Below are positions 26,294 through 52,212 of a DNA stretch of 55,206 nt, one piece after another. Location of the stretch: positions 1 to 55,206 of the forward strand of contig JAUYKQ010000025.1 in assembly GCA_030699905.1 (NCBI GenBank), written 5' to 3'. The notes below the pieces were generated by a model. It worked only from the letters and a program-made list of their open reading frames with translations, did not search any database and was not told where the DNA came from. The translations under genes were made by a program, and so were the position numbers. How positions within the stretch are numbered: position 1 is the first letter of the stretch; every line of letters starts with the position of its first letter. Source of the DNA: a bacterium (GTDB lineage Bacteria; Patescibacteriota; Minisyncoccia; Phycocordibacterales; GCA-002787175).

Positions 26294-26295
26294 AA

Positions 26296-26448
26296 GTGTG
26301 TAGCGTGTAGCGTGTAGCGTGTAGCGTCAAAATCGTGTAGCGCGAAGCGTATAACGTGTAGCGTCAGAGTATTTCTTTTCCGGCGTTACACGTTACAAGT
26401 TACAAGTTTTAGATTATGGCGTTACAAGCTATACGTTACACGATTAGC
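26296..26448. repeat. about 150-nt hairpin of gtgtagcgt / acgttaca words in the ssb-rpsR spacer
   Basis: gtgtagcgt x4 on the left, gttacacgttacaagttacaag on the right. 26355-26404 is identical to 52126-52175 (50 nt). Confidence 0.85.
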
Positions 26449-27506: not shown

Positions 27507-27597
27507 GTTTGTTGAATCTTTACTTGTAATGCCGATACACTACCATTTTTGAGCATGGTTTGCAAACAGAGTATGTATAATCCTAATACTACGAACG

Positions 27598-27666
27598 ATA
27601 TGCGAATACTACAAAAACCGTTCTCCTTGTTCGTAGTATTCGCATAATTCGCAGGTTCGCATTATA
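27598..27666. repeat. about 69-nt hairpin element, inverted copy of 4723-4791
   Basis: atatgcgaatactacaaaaaccgttctccttgttcgtagtattcgcataattcgcaggttcgcattat. Confidence 0.7.
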
Positions 27667-27682
27667 GATTTCGGACCTTGAA

Positions 27683-28642
27683 TTATACCTTGAACATCTG
27701 CCGTGCATTTTTCAAGAGCTGTGCTTGCACGTATTTGAGCGGCATCCCCTTTATCTCCGCTATTCGCTTCACCACCTCCGCTACGTAAATCGGCTCGTTT
27801 CTTTTCCCTCTATGAGGAGCAGGCGTTACATACGGGCAATCGGTTTCCGAAAGAATTCTGTCAATCGGCGCGTATTTTACAAGTTCGTCGTAGTCGCGGG
27901 TGAAAGTGATAACGCCCGTAAAAGATACGTTGAATCCGACATCCAAAATCTCTTTTAGCTCGTCAATTGAGCCGGCAAAGAAGTGGAAATTGCCGCGTGG
28001 AGATGATTTATGATTTACCCTGTGAAATTCGCTAGAAGCGAAAGCCGAAGACGGTTTTTTCACAGGGTTTACGATATATGATTTAAGAATAGAAACCGCG
28101 TCTCTGTAGGCTGAAATCCCCCTCTCCCCCTCTTTGAGGGGGAGATGTCCGGAGGACAGAGGGGGTGCCGGATTTCTCACATGAAGCATAAGCGGCTTTC
28201 CTACTTCAATCGCCAATTCTATCTGCTTCCGGAACGCCTCTTCCTGTTTTTTATGTTCCGTGTTCCATGTTCCATGTTCCATGCGGTAGTAGTCCAATCC
28301 ACACTCCCCTATCCCCACCACTTTCGGGTGCTTTGCCAGATTTTTGTAATACTCGTAATCAAATTCTTCTCCGCGCGAGGTGAACTCTCGGTTCCCTTCC
28401 CCCAGCTCTTTCTCATCATGAAAACTCTTGTCGGTGTGTATCGGGTGCGTTCCGACGATTGCGTAGACGCCTTCTTTATATTTCTCGGCAATCTCCACCG
28501 CTTTTTTGCTCGTATCTTTCTGCGTGCCGACATTTATCATCCACGTATTATTCTCCAAGGCGCGAGAAATAACCTCGTCCCTGTCCGAGTCGTAAGCGGC
28601 AAAGTTTACGTGCGCGTGGCAATCAATAAAAGATGGATTCAT
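27683..28642 (-). CDS. TatD-family metal-dependent hydrolase carrying three in-frame insertions
   Basis: FIDCHAHVNF, GIGECGLDYY, KPLMLHVRN, FHFFAGS, LSETDCPYVTPAPHRGKRNEP. 319 aa versus about 255-260 for canonical TatD. Confidence 0.85.
   Translation of the reverse strand: MNPSFIDCHAHVNFAAYDSDRDEVISRALENNTWMINVGTQKDTSKKAVEIAEKYKEGVYAIVGTHPIHTDKSFHDEKELGEGNREFTSRGEEFDYEYYKNLAKHPKVVGIGECGLDYYRMEHGTWNTEHKKQEEAFRKQIELAIEVGKPLMLHVRNPAPPLSSGHLPLKEGERGISAYRDAVSILKSYIVNPVKKPSSAFASSEFHRVNHKSSPRGNFHFFAGSIDELKEILDVGFNVSFTGVITFTRDYDELVKYAPIDRILSETDCPYVTPAPHRGKRNEPIYVAEVVKRIAEIKGMPLKYVQAQLLKNARQMFKV
28003..28084 (-). repeat. in-frame hairpin insertion 1 in tatD-like CDS
   Basis: atgatttatgatttaccctgtgaaa ... 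tttcacagggtttacgatatatgattt encodes IVNPVKKPSSAFASSEFHRVNHKSS, which has no counterpart in canonical TatD. Confidence 0.7.
28113..28176 (-). repeat. in-frame hairpin insertion 2 in tatD-like CDS
   Basis: gaaatccccctct-ccccctctttgagggggag-...-agagggggtgccggatttc encodes PAPPLSSGHLPLKEGERGIS. Confidence 0.7.
28253..28283 (-). repeat. in-frame gttccatg word array in tatD-like CDS
   Basis: atgttccgtgttccatgttccatgttccatg encodes MEHGTWNTEH. The same array occurs in ileS at 40703-40731. Confidence 0.75.
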
Positions 28643-28821
28643 GATTTATGATTTAAGAATTAGGAATAAGACAAGAAGAGTATAGAATAATCTTTGCGCC
28701 AAAAAAGACAACTTGCGTCATTTCTGCAAAAGCACATAGCTCTGGAGCATTGTCTTATTTGACTCGCATTGTAGATTCCACAAACACGGTTCTAAGAAAC
28801 AATGTTGGCTGTCCGCATTAA

Positions 28822-34270: not shown

Positions 34271-35602
34271 TTATTTCGTCACGAGTTTTGATATATGTGC
34301 TGAAAGTTCGTTTACCCCCACCCTCTCCTGCTCTCCAGTATCGCGGTCTCTTACGGTGACATCGTGTTTTTCAAGCGAATCAAAATCAACAGTTACGCAA
34401 AACGGCGTACCGATTTCGTCTTGCCTGCGGTAGCGCTTGCCGATGTTTCCGTTGTCGTCAAAGGCAATCATGGAGCATGGAACTTGTAGCATAGAGCATA
34501 AATCCTTACGGACTTCCCTCGCCTTTTCCACCAGTTCCGGTTTATTTTTAAGAAGAGGAAAGACGGCTACTTTAACGGGAGCAAGCGCCGGTTTTAATTT
34601 CAAGTAGGCGCGAATCTCGCCGTTCATTTCATCTTCGGTGTAGGCGCTGGAAAGGACAGCGAGCACAGTCCTGTCAACCCCAAGAGATGGTTCAATAACG
34701 TGGGGCAAAAACGGCTCACCGCCGCCCTCTTCGCGATACGTCAAATCAACACCGCTTGAAGAGGCGTGGTTTTGCAAATCATAGTCAGTGCGATAAGCCA
34801 GTCCGTACAATTCTTTTCTGCCAAAAGGAAAATCGTATTCAAAATCAATGGTCCGTTTTGAATAGTGCGCTCTTTCGGAATCTGCCACTTCAAGCTCGTA
34901 CACTTTTTCCTTAGGTAAACCGATTTTTTCTATCCAGCTGTTCATTAGTTTTCGCCACTCTTCAAACTCGCCCTTCCAGTCGTCCGGACGAACAAAATAC
35001 TCAACCTCCATTTGCTCAAACTCTCTGGCGCGAAAAAGAAAATCTCTCGGAGAAATTTCGTTTCTAAATGCCTTGCCCATCTGTGCTATTCCAAAAGGCA
35101 ATTTTGGATGGAAAGAGTCAGAAACGTTTTTGAAATTTGTAAAAATGCCCTGGGCGGTTTCGGGACGCAGATATGATACCGATTCGCTATCTTCAGAAGC
35201 TCCGACATGGGTTTTAAACATCATGTTAAACTGTCTTTCTGCTCCGAGTGTCCCCCCACAATCAAAACACTTGTCTTTGTTTTCAAGCTGGTCAATTCTA
35301 AATTTCTTTTTGCATTTTGAACATTCCACCATCGGGTCAGAAAATCCGCCAACATGTCCGCTGGCCTCCAAAACTTTTTGACTGGTTAGGGTAGCCGCGT
35401 CAATTCCATACATATTTTCTCTATCCGTAACAAACATCTCCCACCACAAGTTTTTTATGTTATTTTTCAGCGCAAGACCGTAAGGTCCGTAATCCCAAAA
35501 CCCCGAAAAACCGCCGTATATTTCGGACGCGGGATACACAAACCCCCTTCTCTTGCAAAGTGAGACGATTTTTTCCATTTGGTTATTTTTCTCTTCTTTC
35601 AT
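34271..35602 (-). CDS. glyQS: glycyl-tRNA synthetase, alpha2 (GlyQS) type
   Basis: GKAFRNEISPRDFLFRAREFEQMEVEYF (class II motif 2), GVDRTVLAVL (motif 3 region), anticodon-binding IGKRYRRQDEIGTPFCVTVD. Confidence 0.9.
   Translation of the reverse strand: MKEEKNNQMEKIVSLCKRRGFVYPASEIYGGFSGFWDYGPYGLALKNNIKNLWWEMFVTDRENMYGIDAATLTSQKVLEASGHVGGFSDPMVECSKCKKKFRIDQLENKDKCFDCGGTLGAERQFNMMFKTHVGASEDSESVSYLRPETAQGIFTNFKNVSDSFHPKLPFGIAQMGKAFRNEISPRDFLFRAREFEQMEVEYFVRPDDWKGEFEEWRKLMNSWIEKIGLPKEKVYELEVADSERAHYSKRTIDFEYDFPFGRKELYGLAYRTDYDLQNHASSSGVDLTYREEGGGEPFLPHVIEPSLGVDRTVLAVLSSAYTEDEMNGEIRAYLKLKPALAPVKVAVFPLLKNKPELVEKAREVRKDLCSMLQVPCSMIAFDDNGNIGKRYRRQDEIGTPFCVTVDFDSLEKHDVTVRDRDTGEQERVGVNELSAHISKLVTK
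34469..34499 (-). repeat. probable in-frame word patch in glyQS
   Basis: catggagcatggaacttgtagcatagagcat encodes CSMLQVPCSM directly before the conserved DDNGNIGKRYRR block. Confidence 0.45.
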
Positions 35603-40218: not shown

Positions 40219-43200
40219 CTATATGTCAAGCGAGAAAAAGAGATTTTCTATAGCAATGTTTTCCGTCGCCACGTCTTCAAAACTCATATCCTTAAGTCCC
40301 GCCGTTTTCTGAATTTCACTTTTATTTTTTTCAAGAAACGCTTTGCCTGTATCATCGGCCTTGACTTTTAGCACGACAGAATCGCTCGGGTTTAGCCCTT
40401 TCTTTTTGCGTAAATCCTGCACGGCGCGGATGAATTCCCGCACCGTTCCCTCCTCCTTAAGCTTTGGCGTTATTTCCGTATCAATCTCCACTTCTCCGGA
40501 AATCGTGTCGTCCAAAACAACCTCTTTTACATTCACCTCGTCTTTCACAAGGTTTATCATTTGCTCGTCTCCGACTTTAAACTTTAAACTTTTAACTTTT
40601 AACTTGTTTAGCGGCTGTCTCACTTTTATACTCGCTTTCGCTCTCTGCTCCAGTGCCAGCGAAACAATCCTTCTCACCTCTTCCATATCTTCAAGCATTT
40701 TTGTTCCATGTTCCATGTTCCATGTTCCATGTTTCGGCCATTCTTCCAGATGCACGCTTTTATCATGTAGCGTGTAGCATGTATCGTGTAGCGACTGATA
40801 CAAATGTTCGGCAAAAAACGGTGTAAACGGCGCCAAAAGTTTTGATAGTTCTATCAAGACATGTCGCAGAGTTGTCAGAGCTTCTTTGTCCCCCTCCTTT
40901 ATGCGGTCACGCGAACGCCGAAGATACCACTGCGACAGATCGCCGATAAATTCACGTATCGCTCTTGCCGGCTCAAGAAGCTTGTAATTATCAAGCCCTT
41001 CAGTTACTTCCCCAACCAGTTGACCCAACCTCGCGAGAACCCATTTGTCCAAAACATGCCCCTTCTCGGATGTTGCATGTTCCATGTTGTGTGTTCCATC
41101 TTTTGAATACAAAAGATAAAACTGCAGAACATTATCGGCGAGGTTAAACACCTTCTTCACTATCTCGTCCACCGTCTTTTCATCATAATTTTTCGCTTCC
41201 CCCGGCTGATTGACCGAGTACATCCAAAAACGCAAAGCGTCCGCTCCGTATTTTTCCATCTGCTCCTTTGGGTCAATAACGTTGCCGAGCGACTTGCTCA
41301 TCTTTTTACCCTTGGCTTCCAAAAGATGGCCGAGAGAAATGACGTTTTTGTAAGCCGCTCCTTTGCCCATCAAAACGCCGATTGCGTGCAAAGTGTAAAA
41401 CCATCCGCGCGTTTGGTCTATCGCCTCGCAAATATAATCGGCCGGATACCCCTTTTCATCTATGTAGTCCTTGTTTTTAAAAGGGTAATGGTCCTCCGCA
41501 AAAGGCATGGCACCCGAATCAAACCAAACGTCCATGACCTCTTTGACTCTTTTCATCTCGCCTCCGCATTTACAAATTAAAGAAATTTCGTCTACGCGAG
41601 GTTTGTGCGGGTCCAGTTCTTTACCGGTCGAGTTGTCAACATAGACGAAAGACGCCTCGGCGTATCCCCCCAAAAGCCCGCGTTTAAAAGTCCTTCTTTC
41701 TTGCCACAAATTCGTAACCTCCTGAAGCGACAAATTTTTCAAATAGCGCAAAAGAAAAATAAGAGGCCCTTCGTGGGACACTATGGCCACTGTTTCGCCT
41801 TTGTGCTTTTCCAAAATCTCGCGAACAAAATCAGACATTCTGTCTTCCACCTGCTTCCAGCTCTCCCCCGTCTGCCCTCTTGGAGTGAGGTAATACTTTT
41901 CATCAGGAAGACCGTTGTAGTCAAGACGATTTCTATTTATGAGAGAGTCCTGAGGTTCTTTGCCGTCCCATTGCCCGCTTTTTACCTCCCAAAGACGGTC
42001 GTCCAAAATGTTTTTGATTTTAATATTTTCCGCCACAATGTCTGCCGTTTCTCGAGCGCGTAAGACAGGAGATGAATACAAAGCATCAACGCCAAGCGCC
42101 GCCAGTTTCTTGCCCGCTTCTTTGGCTTGCTTTTTGCCCTCTTTTGTCAGAGGATATTTATCTCTTTCGCTGTCAAAAATACCGTCAATGTTTTTCTGGC
42201 TCTCTCCGTGGCGCAAAAGTATCAAACGAGTCAAAGGCCTGCCCGCTCCCAACTTAAATATTTCTTCAAATGACCCAACGACCCGCGTTTTTCCGCATCC
42301 CTTCTGCTTGCTATCGGTTTTTTGTAACTCTTCACCTTCAAAAATCTTAAATTCCGAACCTGAAATCTTGCCCGTTTGGATTTGCGGACAAATCCAAACG
42401 GGCAAAGGCGTTCCCCAATACCTCTCTCTTGAAATAGCCCAATCCTTTATATCCTTCAGCCACTCTCCAAACCTGCCCTCTTTTATATATTCCGGCTCCC
42501 AGTTTATTTTTTTATTTTCCTTTACGAGTTTGTCTTTTATTTTTTTGTCGGACATTTTTATATACCAAGAGTCCCGGGCGAAATATATAAGCGCGCTATG
42601 GCATCGCCAACAGTGAGGATAGCTATGCTCATATTTTTCTTTCGCGAAGAGAAGTCCGCGATGAGCCAAGTCCTTTATTATCTCCACGTCCGTACTTTCG
42701 GTCTTCACTTGTTTGCCCGAGAGAAACCCTGTTTCCTTCTTGAAAGTACCGTCTTCATTTACCAAATGATACTTGGGTAGCCCTTCTTTTGTTCCCAACT
42801 GAAAGTCGTCTTGTCCGTACATAACCGCCGTGTGCACGATTCCCGTGCCGTCTTCTGTCGTAACAAAATCCGCCGAATAAACCTTGAAAGCAGGATTTAG
42901 GGCTTCAGGATTTAGGGCTTTAGCAAGAAATGGATACAGAGGTTCGTATTCAAGTCCGACTAATTCCCCTCCCGTAAATTCCTCAATGATTTCGAACTCT
43001 TTATCTTTTAGAACATTCCCTATCCTCTCTTTTGCCAGTATGTATTCTTCCTTTATTCCTGATTCTTGATTCGTAATTCCGATCCGAACATATGTTATGT
43101 TCGGATTTACCGCAAGAGCCACATTCCCCGGCAATGTCCACGGCGTGGTCGTCCAAGCCAACATATAAGTTGGTTTGCCATTTTGAATTTTTAATTTTGA

Positions 43201-43863
43201 ATTTATTTCGGATTTCGGATTTCGGATTTGGAATTTCGCCGTTATCGACAAGTCCTTGACTGTCTCATATCCTTGAGCCAACTCGTGTGACGAAAGCGCC
43301 GTCCCGCATCTCGGGCACCACGGCACTACTTTGTAGTCCTTATACAAAAGCCCCTGCTCGTCTATTTTCTTTACTATGTTCCAAACCGATTCTATATAAT
43401 ACGGCTTGTAGGTAACATACGGGTGTTCCAAGTCAATCCAATAGCCCACCCTCTCCGTAAATTCTTCCCATTCGCGCACGTATTTCCAAACGCTCTCTTT
43501 GCATTTTTGATTGAACTTTTCAACGCCATACTCTTCAACTTCTTTTTTTGACTTAAGCCCGAGTTCTTTTTCCACCTGTATTTCAACAGGCAGTCCATGA
43601 GTATCCCAACCGCCTTTTCTCCGCACGTAAAAGCCACGCATTGTTTTGTATCGCGGTATGGCATCTTTAAACGCTCGGGACTCCAAGTGGTGAATTCCCG
43701 GCTTGCCATTGGCGGTAGGAGGCCCTTCGTAAAAAATGAATTCCTTGCCGGAGTCCTTGTTTTTTTCAAGAGTTTTTTCAAAAATACGGTTTTCCCTCCA
43801 CAACTCCAGTATTTCTTGCTCCTTTTTTGCCCTTTCCGAGCGGACATCTTTTTTGTCAGTCAT
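40219..43863 (-). CDS. ileS: isoleucyl-tRNA synthetase (type 2-like) with a nested histidine-phosphatase domain and several word-repeat insertions
   Basis: PPTANGKPGIHH (HIGH), TTPWTLPGN, ISRERYWGTPLPVW, VMDVWFDSG, GKKMSKSLGNVIDP (KMSKS). ATG at 43863 (MTDKKDVRSE...). Confidence 0.9.
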   Translation of the reverse strand: MTDKKDVRSERAKKEQEILELWRENRIFEKTLEKNKDSGKEFIFYEGPPTANGKPGIHHLESRAFKDAIPRYKTMRGFYVRRKGGWDTHGLPVEIQVEKELGLKSKKEVEEYGVEKFNQKCKESVWKYVREWEEFTERVGYWIDLEHPYVTYKPYYIESVWNIVKKIDEQGLLYKDYKVVPWCPRCGTALSSHELAQGYETVKDLSITAKFQIRNPKSEINSKLKIQNGKPTYMLAWTTTPWTLPGNVALAVNPNITYVRIGITNQESGIKEEYILAKERIGNVLKDKEFEIIEEFTGGELVGLEYEPLYPFLAKALNPEALNPAFKVYSADFVTTEDGTGIVHTAVMYGQDDFQLGTKEGLPKYHLVNEDGTFKKETGFLSGKQVKTESTDVEIIKDLAHRGLLFAKEKYEHSYPHCWRCHSALIYFARDSWYIKMSDKKIKDKLVKENKKINWEPEYIKEGRFGEWLKDIKDWAISRERYWGTPLPVWICPQIQTGKISGSEFKIFEGEELQKTDSKQKGCGKTRVVGSFEEIFKLGAGRPLTRLILLRHGESQKNIDGIFDSERDKYPLTKEGKKQAKEAGKKLAALGVDALYSSPVLRARETADIVAENIKIKNILDDRLWEVKSGQWDGKEPQDSLINRNRLDYNGLPDEKYYLTPRGQTGESWKQVEDRMSDFVREILEKHKGETVAIVSHEGPLIFLLRYLKNLSLQEVTNLWQERRTFKRGLLGGYAEASFVYVDNSTGKELDPHKPRVDEISLICKCGGEMKRVKEVMDVWFDSGAMPFAEDHYPFKNKDYIDEKGYPADYICEAIDQTRGWFYTLHAIGVLMGKGAAYKNVISLGHLLEAKGKKMSKSLGNVIDPKEQMEKYGADALRFWMYSVNQPGEAKNYDEKTVDEIVKKVFNLADNVLQFYLLYSKDGTHNMEHATSEKGHVLDKWVLARLGQLVGEVTEGLDNYKLLEPARAIREFIGDLSQWYLRRSRDRIKEGDKEALTTLRHVLIELSKLLAPFTPFFAEHLYQSLHDTCYTLHDKSVHLEEWPKHGTWNMEHGTKMLEDMEEVRRIVSLALEQRAKASIKVRQPLNKLKVKSLKFKVGDEQMINLVKDEVNVKEVVLDDTISGEVEIDTEITPKLKEEGTVREFIRAVQDLRKKKGLNPSDSVVLKVKADDTGKAFLEKNKSEIQKTAGLKDMSFEDVATENIAIENLFFSLDI
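40575..40606 (-). repeat. in-frame word patch in ileS (aactttaa words)
   Basis: ctttaaactttaaacttttaacttttaacttg encodes KLKVKSLKFKV. Confidence 0.55.
40703..40731 (-). repeat. in-frame gttccatg x4 array in ileS
   Basis: gttccatgttccatgttccatgttccatg encodes HGTWNMEHGT. Confidence 0.75.
40764..40793 (-). repeat. in-frame gtgtagcg-family word patch in ileS
   Basis: catgtagcgtgtagcatgtatcgtgtagcg encodes HDTCYTLHD. Same words as the intergenic hairpins at 26296 and 52104. Confidence 0.7.
41072..41100 (-). repeat. in-frame gttccatg-like patch in ileS
   Basis: gttgcatgttccatgttgtgtgttccatc encodes DGTHNMEHAT. Confidence 0.6.
41620..42235 (-). other. histidine phosphatase (PGAM / His_Phos_1-like) domain nested inside ileS
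   Basis: TRLILLRHGESQKN (RHG), YSSPVLRARETADIV, VAIVSHEGPLIFLL. Canonical IleRS sequence lies on both sides, with no stop codons. Confidence 0.75.
42367..42407 (-). repeat. 17-bp perfect hairpin inside ileS
   Basis: ttgcccgtttggatttg-cgga-caaatccaaacgggcaa. The mRNA-sense 5' arm encodes conserved LPVWIC; the 3' arm encodes the non-canonical QIQTGK. Confidence 0.85.
42891..42924 (-). repeat. in-frame tandem duplication/word patch in ileS
   Basis: caggatttagggcttcaggatttagggctttagc encodes KALNPEALNPA (tandem ALNPE/ALNPA). Confidence 0.65.
43181..43238 (-). repeat. in-frame word patch in ileS (cggattt / gaatttt words)
   Basis: ttttgaatttttaattttgaatttatttcggatttcggatttcggatttggaatttcg encodes NPKSEINSKLKIQNGK. 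Confidence 0.65.
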
Positions 43864-43969
43864 ATATAGACAGTTTAAGGTATTTTCGGCCTTTTTCCAA
43901 ACGTGTACACCGGCCATGAACAACAAACCGTATGCCAATGGAACCACAGTGTTCGTTTCAGCGCAAACT

Positions 43970-52103: not shown

Positions 52104-52212
52104 GCGTATAGCGTGAAGCGTGTAGCGTGTAGCGTCAGAGTATTTCTTTTCCGGCGTTACACGTTACAAGTTACACGTTGTATATTATGGCGTTACAAGT
52201 TACATGTTTTGC
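52104..52212. repeat. about 110-nt gtgtagcgt / acgttaca hairpin in the dcd-thyA spacer
   Basis: Shares a 50-nt identical core (52126-52175) with 26355-26404. Confidence 0.85.

Follow-up and report, generated by a model that had tools for sequence, protein, structure and literature searches.

Small palindromic sequences that lie in frame within unrelated housekeeping genes, are translated, and occupy positions compatible with the protein fold are known from reduced genomes as Rickettsia palindromic elements (RPEs) (PMC10969869). [quoted passage not shown] Short structured extragenic palindromes in many copies are also represented by the repetitive extragenic palindromic (REP) and IS200/IS605-derived sequences; the REPs bear a GTAG or CGTC tag, are moved by Y1 (tyrosine HUH-type) transposases, and produce no target duplication (PMC3733652). 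Tandem repeats of a 7-nt unit, including the cyanobacterial short tandemly repeated repetitive (STRR) sequences and the TAACTGA repeats of Beggiatoaceae, Cyanobacteria, and Bacteroidetes, occur in few copies at many loci, often just upstream of start codons, and heptamers are reported to be the commonest class of long simple sequence repeats (SSRs) in many prokaryotes, possibly owing to polymerase slippage (PMC4679880, PMC4692102). The tandem repeats of Borg extrachromosomal elements arise in ORFs and yield new disordered protein segments with the frame unbroken (PMC9879509). In-frame palindromic elements, MITEs, and heptamer repeats are each already known kinds of sequence. Here we describe a gene for a TatD-family metal-dependent hydrolase (27683..28642, minus strand, 319 aa, intact) on the 55,206-nt contig JAUYKQ010000025.1 of a patescibacterium (assembly GCA_030699905.1; the whole contig is hereafter called the window), in which such sequences meet. 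What appears to be new is their co-occurrence in housekeeping genes of Patescibacteria, the presence of a 7-nt unit in essential genes, and a family of 50-nt three-way-junction hairpins with 4-nt duplications; no paper on in-frame palindromic inserts in Patescibacteria was found in the open-access literature. We consider it probable that the TatD gene carries repetitive selfish or mutational DNA that is tolerated in permissive loops of the enzyme, in a manner analogous to the RPEs. Judged from sequence comparison, there were four events of two kinds, namely heptamer arrays ancestral to a clade (R1 and R3-outer) and hairpins specific to one lineage (R3-inner and R2).

The enzyme itself looks intact because the Pfam match, the invariant residues, the gene order, and the superposition of a model on solved TatD/YcfH structures all speak for it. 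The Pfam family TatD_DNase (PF01026) aligns along its full profile (1-253 of 253) with residues 6-318 of the 319-aa ORF (E=2.7e-69), and the canonical blocks that an initial annotation of this DNA had listed (HAHVNF, GECGLDYY, LHVRN, FHFFAG, and ETDCPY..PHRG) are all present. H9, H11, E113, H154, H220, and D268 (the HxH, Glu, His, His, and Asp residues) are among the invariant columns in an alignment of the query with 27 orthologues, and all of them are kept by the query. The AlphaFold2 (AF2) model, with a mean predicted local distance difference test (pLDDT) score of 84.5, superposes on 1j6o, 6l25, 2gzx, 1xwy, and 1yix with target-normalised TM-scores of 0.85-0.90 and E-values down to 2.5e-23, which indicates a TIM-barrel fold. 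Among thousands of homologues the best ones were Patescibacteria TatD proteins, from Candidatus Taylorbacteria or Paceibacterota where named, with an identity to the query of at most 64% and lengths mostly of 277-300 aa. The gene order methionyl-tRNA synthetase (MetRS)-TatD-ribosomal protein S6-single-stranded DNA-binding protein (SSB) is common to the query and L043, one of the five relatives (L040-L044) used for nucleotide comparison. No intrinsic terminators or promoters were found within the TatD gene.

Compared with a compact Patescibacteria orthologue (P0005, 277 aa), the query TatD has an excess of 42 aa, which falls entirely within three segments (R1, +4; R2, +15; R3, +23), with nothing elsewhere. 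The earlier estimate of about 60 additional residues is right in relation to solved TatD/YcfH structures (253-265 aa), over which the excess is about 55-65 aa, and too high in relation to the compact Patescibacteria orthologues; roughly 18 aa of the excess over the solved structures belong to a non-repetitive segment at residues ~70-90, conserved clade-wide, that had not been listed. Both the orthologue alignment and the five-relative nucleotide comparison support the proposal that the three flagged segments are repetitive in-frame additions to the TatD core, and the 319-codon frame is indeed free of any stop or frameshift from them. The number of events has to be raised from three to four, since the third segment combines an older heptamer array with a 50-nt hairpin, accompanied by a 4-nt duplication, that lies inside it. 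Segments conserved throughout this TatD subfamily and devoid of repeat structure in relatives were not what the alignment revealed: in the relatives the DNA still shows the heptamer periodicity, and L044 carries a different word at R1, while segment 1 did prove to be common to part of the subfamily.

The 50-nt element within segment 3 (R3-inner, 28018..28067, no strand assigned) is flanked by a direct TTTA repeat on its left (28014..28017) and right (28068..28071), which corresponds to a 4-nt target-site duplication. It has a perfect 10-bp terminal inverted repeat (CCCTGTGAAA/TTTCACAGGG) that encloses two inner mini-hairpins, and its fold is strong (z = -6.6/-6.2). The hairpin proposed for 28003-28084 is confirmed in this respect, but only the inner 10+10 nt are inverted, and the outer atgattt words are direct repeats. 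At this position the relatives read KSYIVNH(K/G)S and the query reads KSYIVN-PVKKPSSAFASSEFHRVN-HKSS. Read in frame, the element encodes (N)PVKKPSSAFASSEFHR(V), with no stop in that phase. Removal of the element together with one TTTA restores AAA TCA TAT ATC GTA AAT CAT AAA TCA TCT (KSYIVNHKSS), which has the sequence and length of the L040/L041 orthologues and keeps the heptamer register. The element was found in no relative, whether in the orthologue alignment, in the five-relative nucleotide comparison, or by a model search of 267 kb from TatD relatives. A covariance model based on 30 metagenome members, from which the query was excluded, scores the TatD element at 41.4 bits (E=6e-10). We suppose that the element entered a pre-existing AT-rich array in a transposition-like manner, duplicating the 4 bp TTTA; the frame would have been kept because 50+4 = 54 nt, with no stop in that phase.

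The extra DNA at this site, consisting of the element and the second TTTA, is accordingly a multiple of 3. The inserts are probably translated; peptides crossing the insert junctions would be NPAPPLSSGHLPLK, SYIVNPVK, KPSSAFASSEFHR, MEHGTWNTEHK, and EFHRVNHK. It is very improbable that the hairpins escape translation by programmed bypassing, as in phage T4 gene 60 and the mitochondrial 'byp' sequences, or by mRNA excision. The 54-nt insert does lie between identical codons (GTA AAx ... GTA AAx), contains a stable hairpin, and has a size within the range of known bypass gaps. Bypassing, however, needs neither a length in multiples of 3 nor freedom from stops, and this insert has both, like three other genic copies of the same hairpin family; nor does any stop follow the putative take-off codon. 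The bias of the family, described below, towards lengths of 3n after duplication and towards open frames would be expected with read-through. Moreover, no match to an Rfam ribozyme or intron was obtained: Rfam 15 gave nothing at E<=10 for the window hairpins and nothing at E<=1 for the elements in 20 metagenome loci.

The TatD element belongs to a family. A scan of metagenomes with a pattern of two 10-nt arms and a 20-50 nt gap returned at least 120 stretches (L045-L164), which include no fewer than 110 distinct hairpins of three-way-junction shape, distributed over more than 100 independent contigs, while the same arm pattern found nothing in 2.9 million viral contigs. Among the matches listed, which most often measure 50 nt, the stem extends past the pattern to CCCTGTGAAATA/TATTTCACAGGG, and the interior is usually made of two mini-hairpins, each with a C-G pair closing its 3-nt loop. 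Beyond the searched 10-nt repeat, 27 of the 30 aligned members keep a flanking T-A pair, and 18 of the 30 have A-U at the position after it. Within the same 30 members double changes occur at each of the 11 inner pairs, 96.8% of the cells are paired, and the covariation score of the inner helices amounts to 0.392, versus 0.02-0.07 with slid partners; such covarying mini-hairpins imply selection on a folded single strand. Exactly 4-nt flanking direct repeats occur in 29-30 of the 114-118 distinct members listed, against about 2.8 expected, and at least 10 different tetranucleotides are duplicated. An excess of this kind reads as the signature of staggered-cut transposition, in which case the element would presumably be moved by a transposase acting in trans. 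In another class, of about 30 members, the direct repeats give way to stem extensions of 4-6 bp (e.g., TTTA...TGAA, including a G-T pair); beyond such extended stems, duplications did not rise above background.

The contigs that carry the family range from 29 to 71% in G+C, and some metagenome contigs contain 2-4 copies. Most copies are intergenic, with no favoured neighbour gene and no terminator-type pattern of orientation. In-frame copies split the Pfam domains of at least three further genes, namely Aminotran_5 of a cysteine desulfurase, RNase_H of an RNase HI, and HisKA of a histidine kinase, the last on a GC-rich contig. These copies too are stop-free and a multiple of 3, and the 28 aa of the copy in the Paceibacterota cysteine desulfurase are missing from its orthologues, which thus present an empty site at the protein level. 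Filled and empty sites also coexist on L096, whose positions 1-640 contain a CRISPR-like array with a 36-nt repeat, ATCTACAAAAGTAGAAATCTTATAGGACTTCTAAG, which we take to resemble Cas12a repeats; a 52-nt three-way-junction element sits in four of its seven repeats, at one position, beside empty repeats. Several candidate identities for the family were discarded. L050 was considered as an autonomous element and dropped as a chance match that resembles a eukaryotic transposon bearing subterminal TGTGAAA repeats; a hammerhead ribozyme was rejected because hardly any unpaired core exists at the junction and the CUGANGA and GAAA motifs are missing; and the resemblance of the stem (GTGAAAT/ATTTCAC) to a parS half-site, over only 7 nt, was treated as coincidence. 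In the open-access literature the 12-mer stem was found in primer sequences only.

Compared with the described systems, the RPEs are analogues set apart by size and host. They measure about 100-150 bp and form Rickettsia-specific, high-copy families, whereas the TatD element is 50 nt long, folds into a three-way junction, is bordered by 4-nt duplications, and has one clear copy in the window. The Correia and RUP elements share this size of about 100-150 bp with the RPEs, well above ~50 nt. The difference from MITEs lies in the 50-nt interior, which is made of two covarying mini-hairpins and holds no degenerate transposase remnant, and no insertion sequence was found that shares its ends and could be its parent. 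Unlike REPs, the element is tagless at both ends, and many of its copies are flanked by duplications.

The other lineage-specific hairpin, R2 (28115..28171, minus strand), is a 57-nt GC-rich palindromic segment that encodes PAPPLSSGHLPLKEGERGI (residues 158-176) and takes the place of the relatives' 12-nt GSGR (N-GSGR-S), a net gain of 45 nt. The inverted repeat annotated at 28113-28176 is borne out: with its flanking GAAAT/ATTTC the hairpin spans just these positions, and it possesses 19-nt arms at 74% complementarity, a perfect 8-bp outer stem, and a perfect inner stem of 10 bp (28123-28132/28136-28145). It folds as an outer stem with two inner hairpins (z = -3.3), the shape of the 50-nt element, and is the top non-self match of the three-way-junction model in the window, at a non-significant 12 bits (E=0.31). 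A viral scan for R2 returned only simple hairpins, at the chance expectation for a 16-base pattern. The centre of R2 (TCC TCC GGA CAT) may be a remnant of the native GSGR codons between palindrome halves that include a duplicated octamer, and the layout would fit snap-back (template-switch) synthesis equally well as an old, decayed element; R2 is perhaps also a small hairpin element.

Since R2 and R3-inner were seen on this contig alone among thousands of homologues, and repeats are prone to misassembly, we considered whether the inserts are assembly errors or the junk of a decaying pseudogene. This deserves hardly any credence. R1 and R3-outer recur in five independent assemblies, the frame is intact over 319 codons with every invariant residue kept, the MetRS-TatD-S6-SSB synteny is preserved, and the 50-nt element is a true member of a family spread over more than 100 independent contigs, with a clean 4-nt duplication.

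The two ancestral additions consist of heptamer arrays. R1 (28253..28283, minus strand) reads (ATGGAAC)x4.4 on the coding strand and encodes MEHGTWNTEH (residues 121-130). The tandem array and its peptide had been recognised before, but Tandem Repeats Finder (TRF) resolves the unit as the 7-mer ATGTTCC (period 7, 4.4 copies, 91% matches), not the 8-mer gttccatg, and the segment does not fold as a hairpin (z = -1.7). It adds a net 4 aa compared with compact orthologues and 6 aa compared with S. aureus YcfH. The query units are ATGGAAC ATGGAAC ATGGAAC ACGGAAC, and at the identical site L040-L043 repeat this word four times, apart from scattered changes. L044, the closest relative by amino-acid identity (0.74), carries at this site four units of the unrelated word ATTAGGA/ATTATGA. 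The number of units is accordingly constant at four between lineages while the words change, and the residues at the centre of R1 vary (G/E/K, T/G/V/S) with the DNA period retained.

R3-outer is an array of about four AAATCAT units in total, split by the 50-nt element. Its upstream half on the coding strand (28068..28085, minus strand; identified as a direct repeat and from the relatives) reads AAATCAT ATATCGT and begins in the conserved ILKSY codons, and its downstream half (28001..28017, minus strand) consists of AAATCAT units that encode VNHKSS, with a TRF period of 7 at 28003-28017 and the same register in L040-L044. All six genes, i.e., the query and L040-L044, contain about four AAATCAT-like units that start within the ILKSY codons. 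A pure (AAATCAT)n array would yield TAA, and the stop-making unit is mutated in every lineage compared. As had been noted, the atgattta word continues outside the gene: ATGATTTATGATTTA recurs exactly at 28641-28655, overlapping the TatD start codon, as part of a leader array (28641..28662, minus strand) of two AAATCAT units followed by related words that lies directly 5' of the ATG and overlaps it. An equivalent leader array precedes the TatD start codon in L040 and L043, and is lacking in L041, L042, and L044; no obvious Shine-Dalgarno-like sequence was seen at the array in the query, L040, or L043. Growth of the arrays in 21-nt steps was considered and is not supported by the net gains of +4 and +5 codons.

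These arrays resemble the known heptanucleotide SSRs in unit length, but those are essentially intergenic, and TAACTGA holds stops, whereas here arrays also lie in the essential TatD, isoleucyl-tRNA synthetase (IleRS), and glycyl-tRNA synthetase (GlyRS) genes, with several words, all three phases read, and a patescibacterial host. The Borg units within ORFs, for their part, are divisible by three and give perfect amino-acid repeats; with the 7-nt unit the peptide has a super-period of seven codons, and the gain or loss of one or two units would put the reading out of frame. The arrays probably arise and homogenise by replication slippage or by recombination between arrays. As 7 is not a multiple of 3, each array would be read in all three phases, and only stop-free words or mutated units would survive in genes.

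No repeat period other than 7 is enriched in the window: under strict criteria, period 7 accounts for eight strong arrays versus none in shuffles, and arrays of other periods were almost absent. In 274 kb from relatives we counted 27 arrays of period 7, against 8 of period 5, 3 of period 6, and none of periods 8-11. Matches to two word patterns in the window numbered 11 and 14, versus 2.4 and 1.4 expected, and a small set of heptamer words is reused at several loci. The arrays are depleted in coding DNA, with about 5 of 15 in real genes versus an ORF coverage of 83%. IleRS holds at least six heptamer or other short-period arrays, whose in-frame peptides include HGTWNMEHGT (from the ATGGAAC word, as in R1), LHDTCYTLHD, KLKVKSLKFKV, and IRNPKSEINSKLKIQN, and several of them coincide with gaps or variable stretches relative to solved IleRS.

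Other features of the window were recorded alongside. The IleRS gene (40219-43869, minus strand) also encodes a complete His_Phos_1 domain (Pfam, E=2.6e-40, residues 549-721, about 41700-42230), which lies in a segment of about 250 aa missing from solved IleRS structures. In GlyRS (34271-35602, minus strand) the stretch separating the class II core from the anticodon-binding domain contains a degenerate ATGGAAC-type array (34469-34499), which in its different phase yields CSMLQVPCSM. A composite intergenic element is present in two copies (26294-26440 and 52104-52210) with the structure (GTGTAGC)n, GTCAGAGTATTTCTTTTCCGGC, (GTTACAC/GTTACAA)n; its two arrays are near-complementary, with G-T pairs on the plus strand, and in both copies the first array abuts CAT, the putative ATG start of a minus-strand gene. 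Between MetRS and TatD, which are adjacent in L043, the window has a gene whose product bears the N-terminal methylation motif of type IV pilins (PF07963; 28822-29391, minus strand).

In the AF2 model the inserts fall in low-confidence loops of a protein that superposes on solved TatD, and they coincide with gaps relative to the solved TatD sequences. R1 (121-130) lies between strand 108-114 and helix 126-147, R2 (158-176) between strand 151-154 and helix 178-191, and R3 (192-216) between helix 178-191 and strand 217-220; the pLDDT is below 50 for R2 and R3, within R2 at residues 163-172. Barrel topology predicts that the catalytic face bears R1 and R2 and that R3 is on the opposite side. In TatD genes of other Patescibacteria, unrelated inserts (hairpins or words) occupy these same few loops as well as two others. 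For instance, TTCTCTAATTCGCGCGAATTAGAGAA (FSNSRELEN) stands in frame at the loop after ELGEG in the TatD genes of four lineages (L004, L008, L011, and L013), and the TatD gene of L007 has a three-way junction with the stem CCTGTTAGAGGC/GCCTCTAACGGG at the loop after core column 209. In the TatD-S6 spacer of the query (27583-27660) there is a long hairpin of ACGAAT/GCGAAT-type words, with arms at 27600-27615 and 27630-27645 that are 94% complementary, and words like these encode inserts such as DTNPRMGSNDTN in the TatD of other lineages.

The position of R1 and R2 after strands that bear the metal ligands E113 and H154, which by TIM-barrel topology would place them on the catalytic face, raises the question of whether the inserted peptides are adaptive, for example as flexible loops controlling access to the active site or bringing in a partner, with the repeats as no more than their origin. 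An MEHxxWNxEH peptide is found in at least six orthologues, and HGTWNMEHGT recurs in IleRS. We regard this explanation as quite unlikely: the loops are predicted to be disordered (pLDDT <50), R2 and inner R3 occur in one lineage among thousands of homologues, the residues at the centre of R1 vary while the DNA period stays, unrelated sequences occupy the same loops in other lineages, and the peptides shared by unrelated enzymes are there because a DNA word was reused.

For the probable reading of tolerated repetitive DNA, we envisage that such DNA enters genes at random or at AT-rich targets and that selection then removes frameshifts, stops, and disruptions of the barrel, so that the survivors would mark permissive loops. 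These loops would look like hot spots because selection leaves such DNA visible there only. Most likely the inserts would have no function in TatD and be carried along as passengers, neutral or slightly deleterious.

Several observations weigh against this picture. No transposase was found for the hairpin family, no gene recurs beside the element (456 neighbouring ORFs clustered), and the loci scanned contain no distant end pairs that enclose a transposase. About 71% of the family members among the matches listed have no recognisable duplication, and the 55-kb window has a single clear copy, with none seen in the 267 kb searched from TatD relatives. R2 lacks a flanking duplication and has no family in the loci scanned. 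The lengths of the hairpin family favour 2 mod 3 (45 of 84 clusters, p=4e-4), so that with the duplication added the total becomes divisible by three, and on both strands 84% of copies, versus 58-60% of composition-matched controls, have no stop in one phase (PCE...ISQG); the TatD copy uses the other open phase. Both biases suggest, from sequence statistics, adaptation to coding sequence rather than pure accident. Furthermore, R1 is identical at 21-27 of 30 nucleotides among the five lineages with that word despite 4-fold degenerate sites saturated at an identity of 0.30-0.46, which means that the array is under constraint, has been homogenised, or is of later date than the genes; drifting junk would not be conserved to this degree, which calls for homogenisation that is still going on, repeated gain, or selection. 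The base that varies in the leader word (A, C, or T) also equals that of the internal ILKSY array in the query, L040, and L043, which hints at a role of the arrays at the RNA or DNA level or at conversion between the sites.

R1 conservation, the matching leader array, and the coding-compatible hairpin design are three misfits with pure neutrality, and because of them a nucleic-acid-level function of the arrays and an adapted lifestyle of the hairpin stay alive. According to the first of these ideas, the arrays, and possibly the hairpins, act as nucleic acid, offering sites to a single-strand-binding regulator (cold-shock or S1-like, one per 7 nt) or to a DNA-binding protein, and their genic copies are kept by selection. 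The preserved R1 DNA agrees with this, as do the leader array that abuts the ATG in the query, L040, and L043 with a word equal to that of the internal array in each lineage, the two (GTGTAGC)n-loop-(GTTACAC)n copies that both abut a start codon, and the recurrence of few words over the loci; a similar proposal was made for the TAACTGA heptamers upstream of Beggiatoaceae start codons (PMC4679880). We nevertheless think it unlikely, as the words are lineage-specific, with an unrelated one at R1 in the closest relative, three of the five relatives have no leader array, coding DNA holds fewer arrays than its share, no protein was identified as a candidate for binding, and the co-variation of leader and internal arrays amounts to one base in three lineages.

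With tolerated repetitive DNA retained as the probable explanation, several consequences follow for the Patescibacteria. Their proteins are often longer and more 'gappy' than homologues, and repeats in permissive loops, presumably translated, are one source of this, here visible at nucleotide resolution. In-frame palindromes like those of Rickettsia are now found in very different bacteria with reduced genomes, and the 50-nt hairpin family gains a search pattern and a covariance model. Inserts of this kind distort alignments, domain calls, and structure predictions. In essential genes the 7-nt arrays are a mutational hazard, and their persistence needs an explanation, because any one-unit slip would shift the frame. 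We tentatively propose, with somewhat more doubt than conviction, that the 50-nt hairpin is an undescribed ultra-small mobile element, spread over many uncultured bacterial lineages and built for tolerance inside genes, which colonises loops of essential proteins and even CRISPR repeats. If this were true, the hairpin together with the self-homogenising heptamer arrays would make the proteomes of Patescibacteria a showcase of loop evolution driven by selfish DNA.

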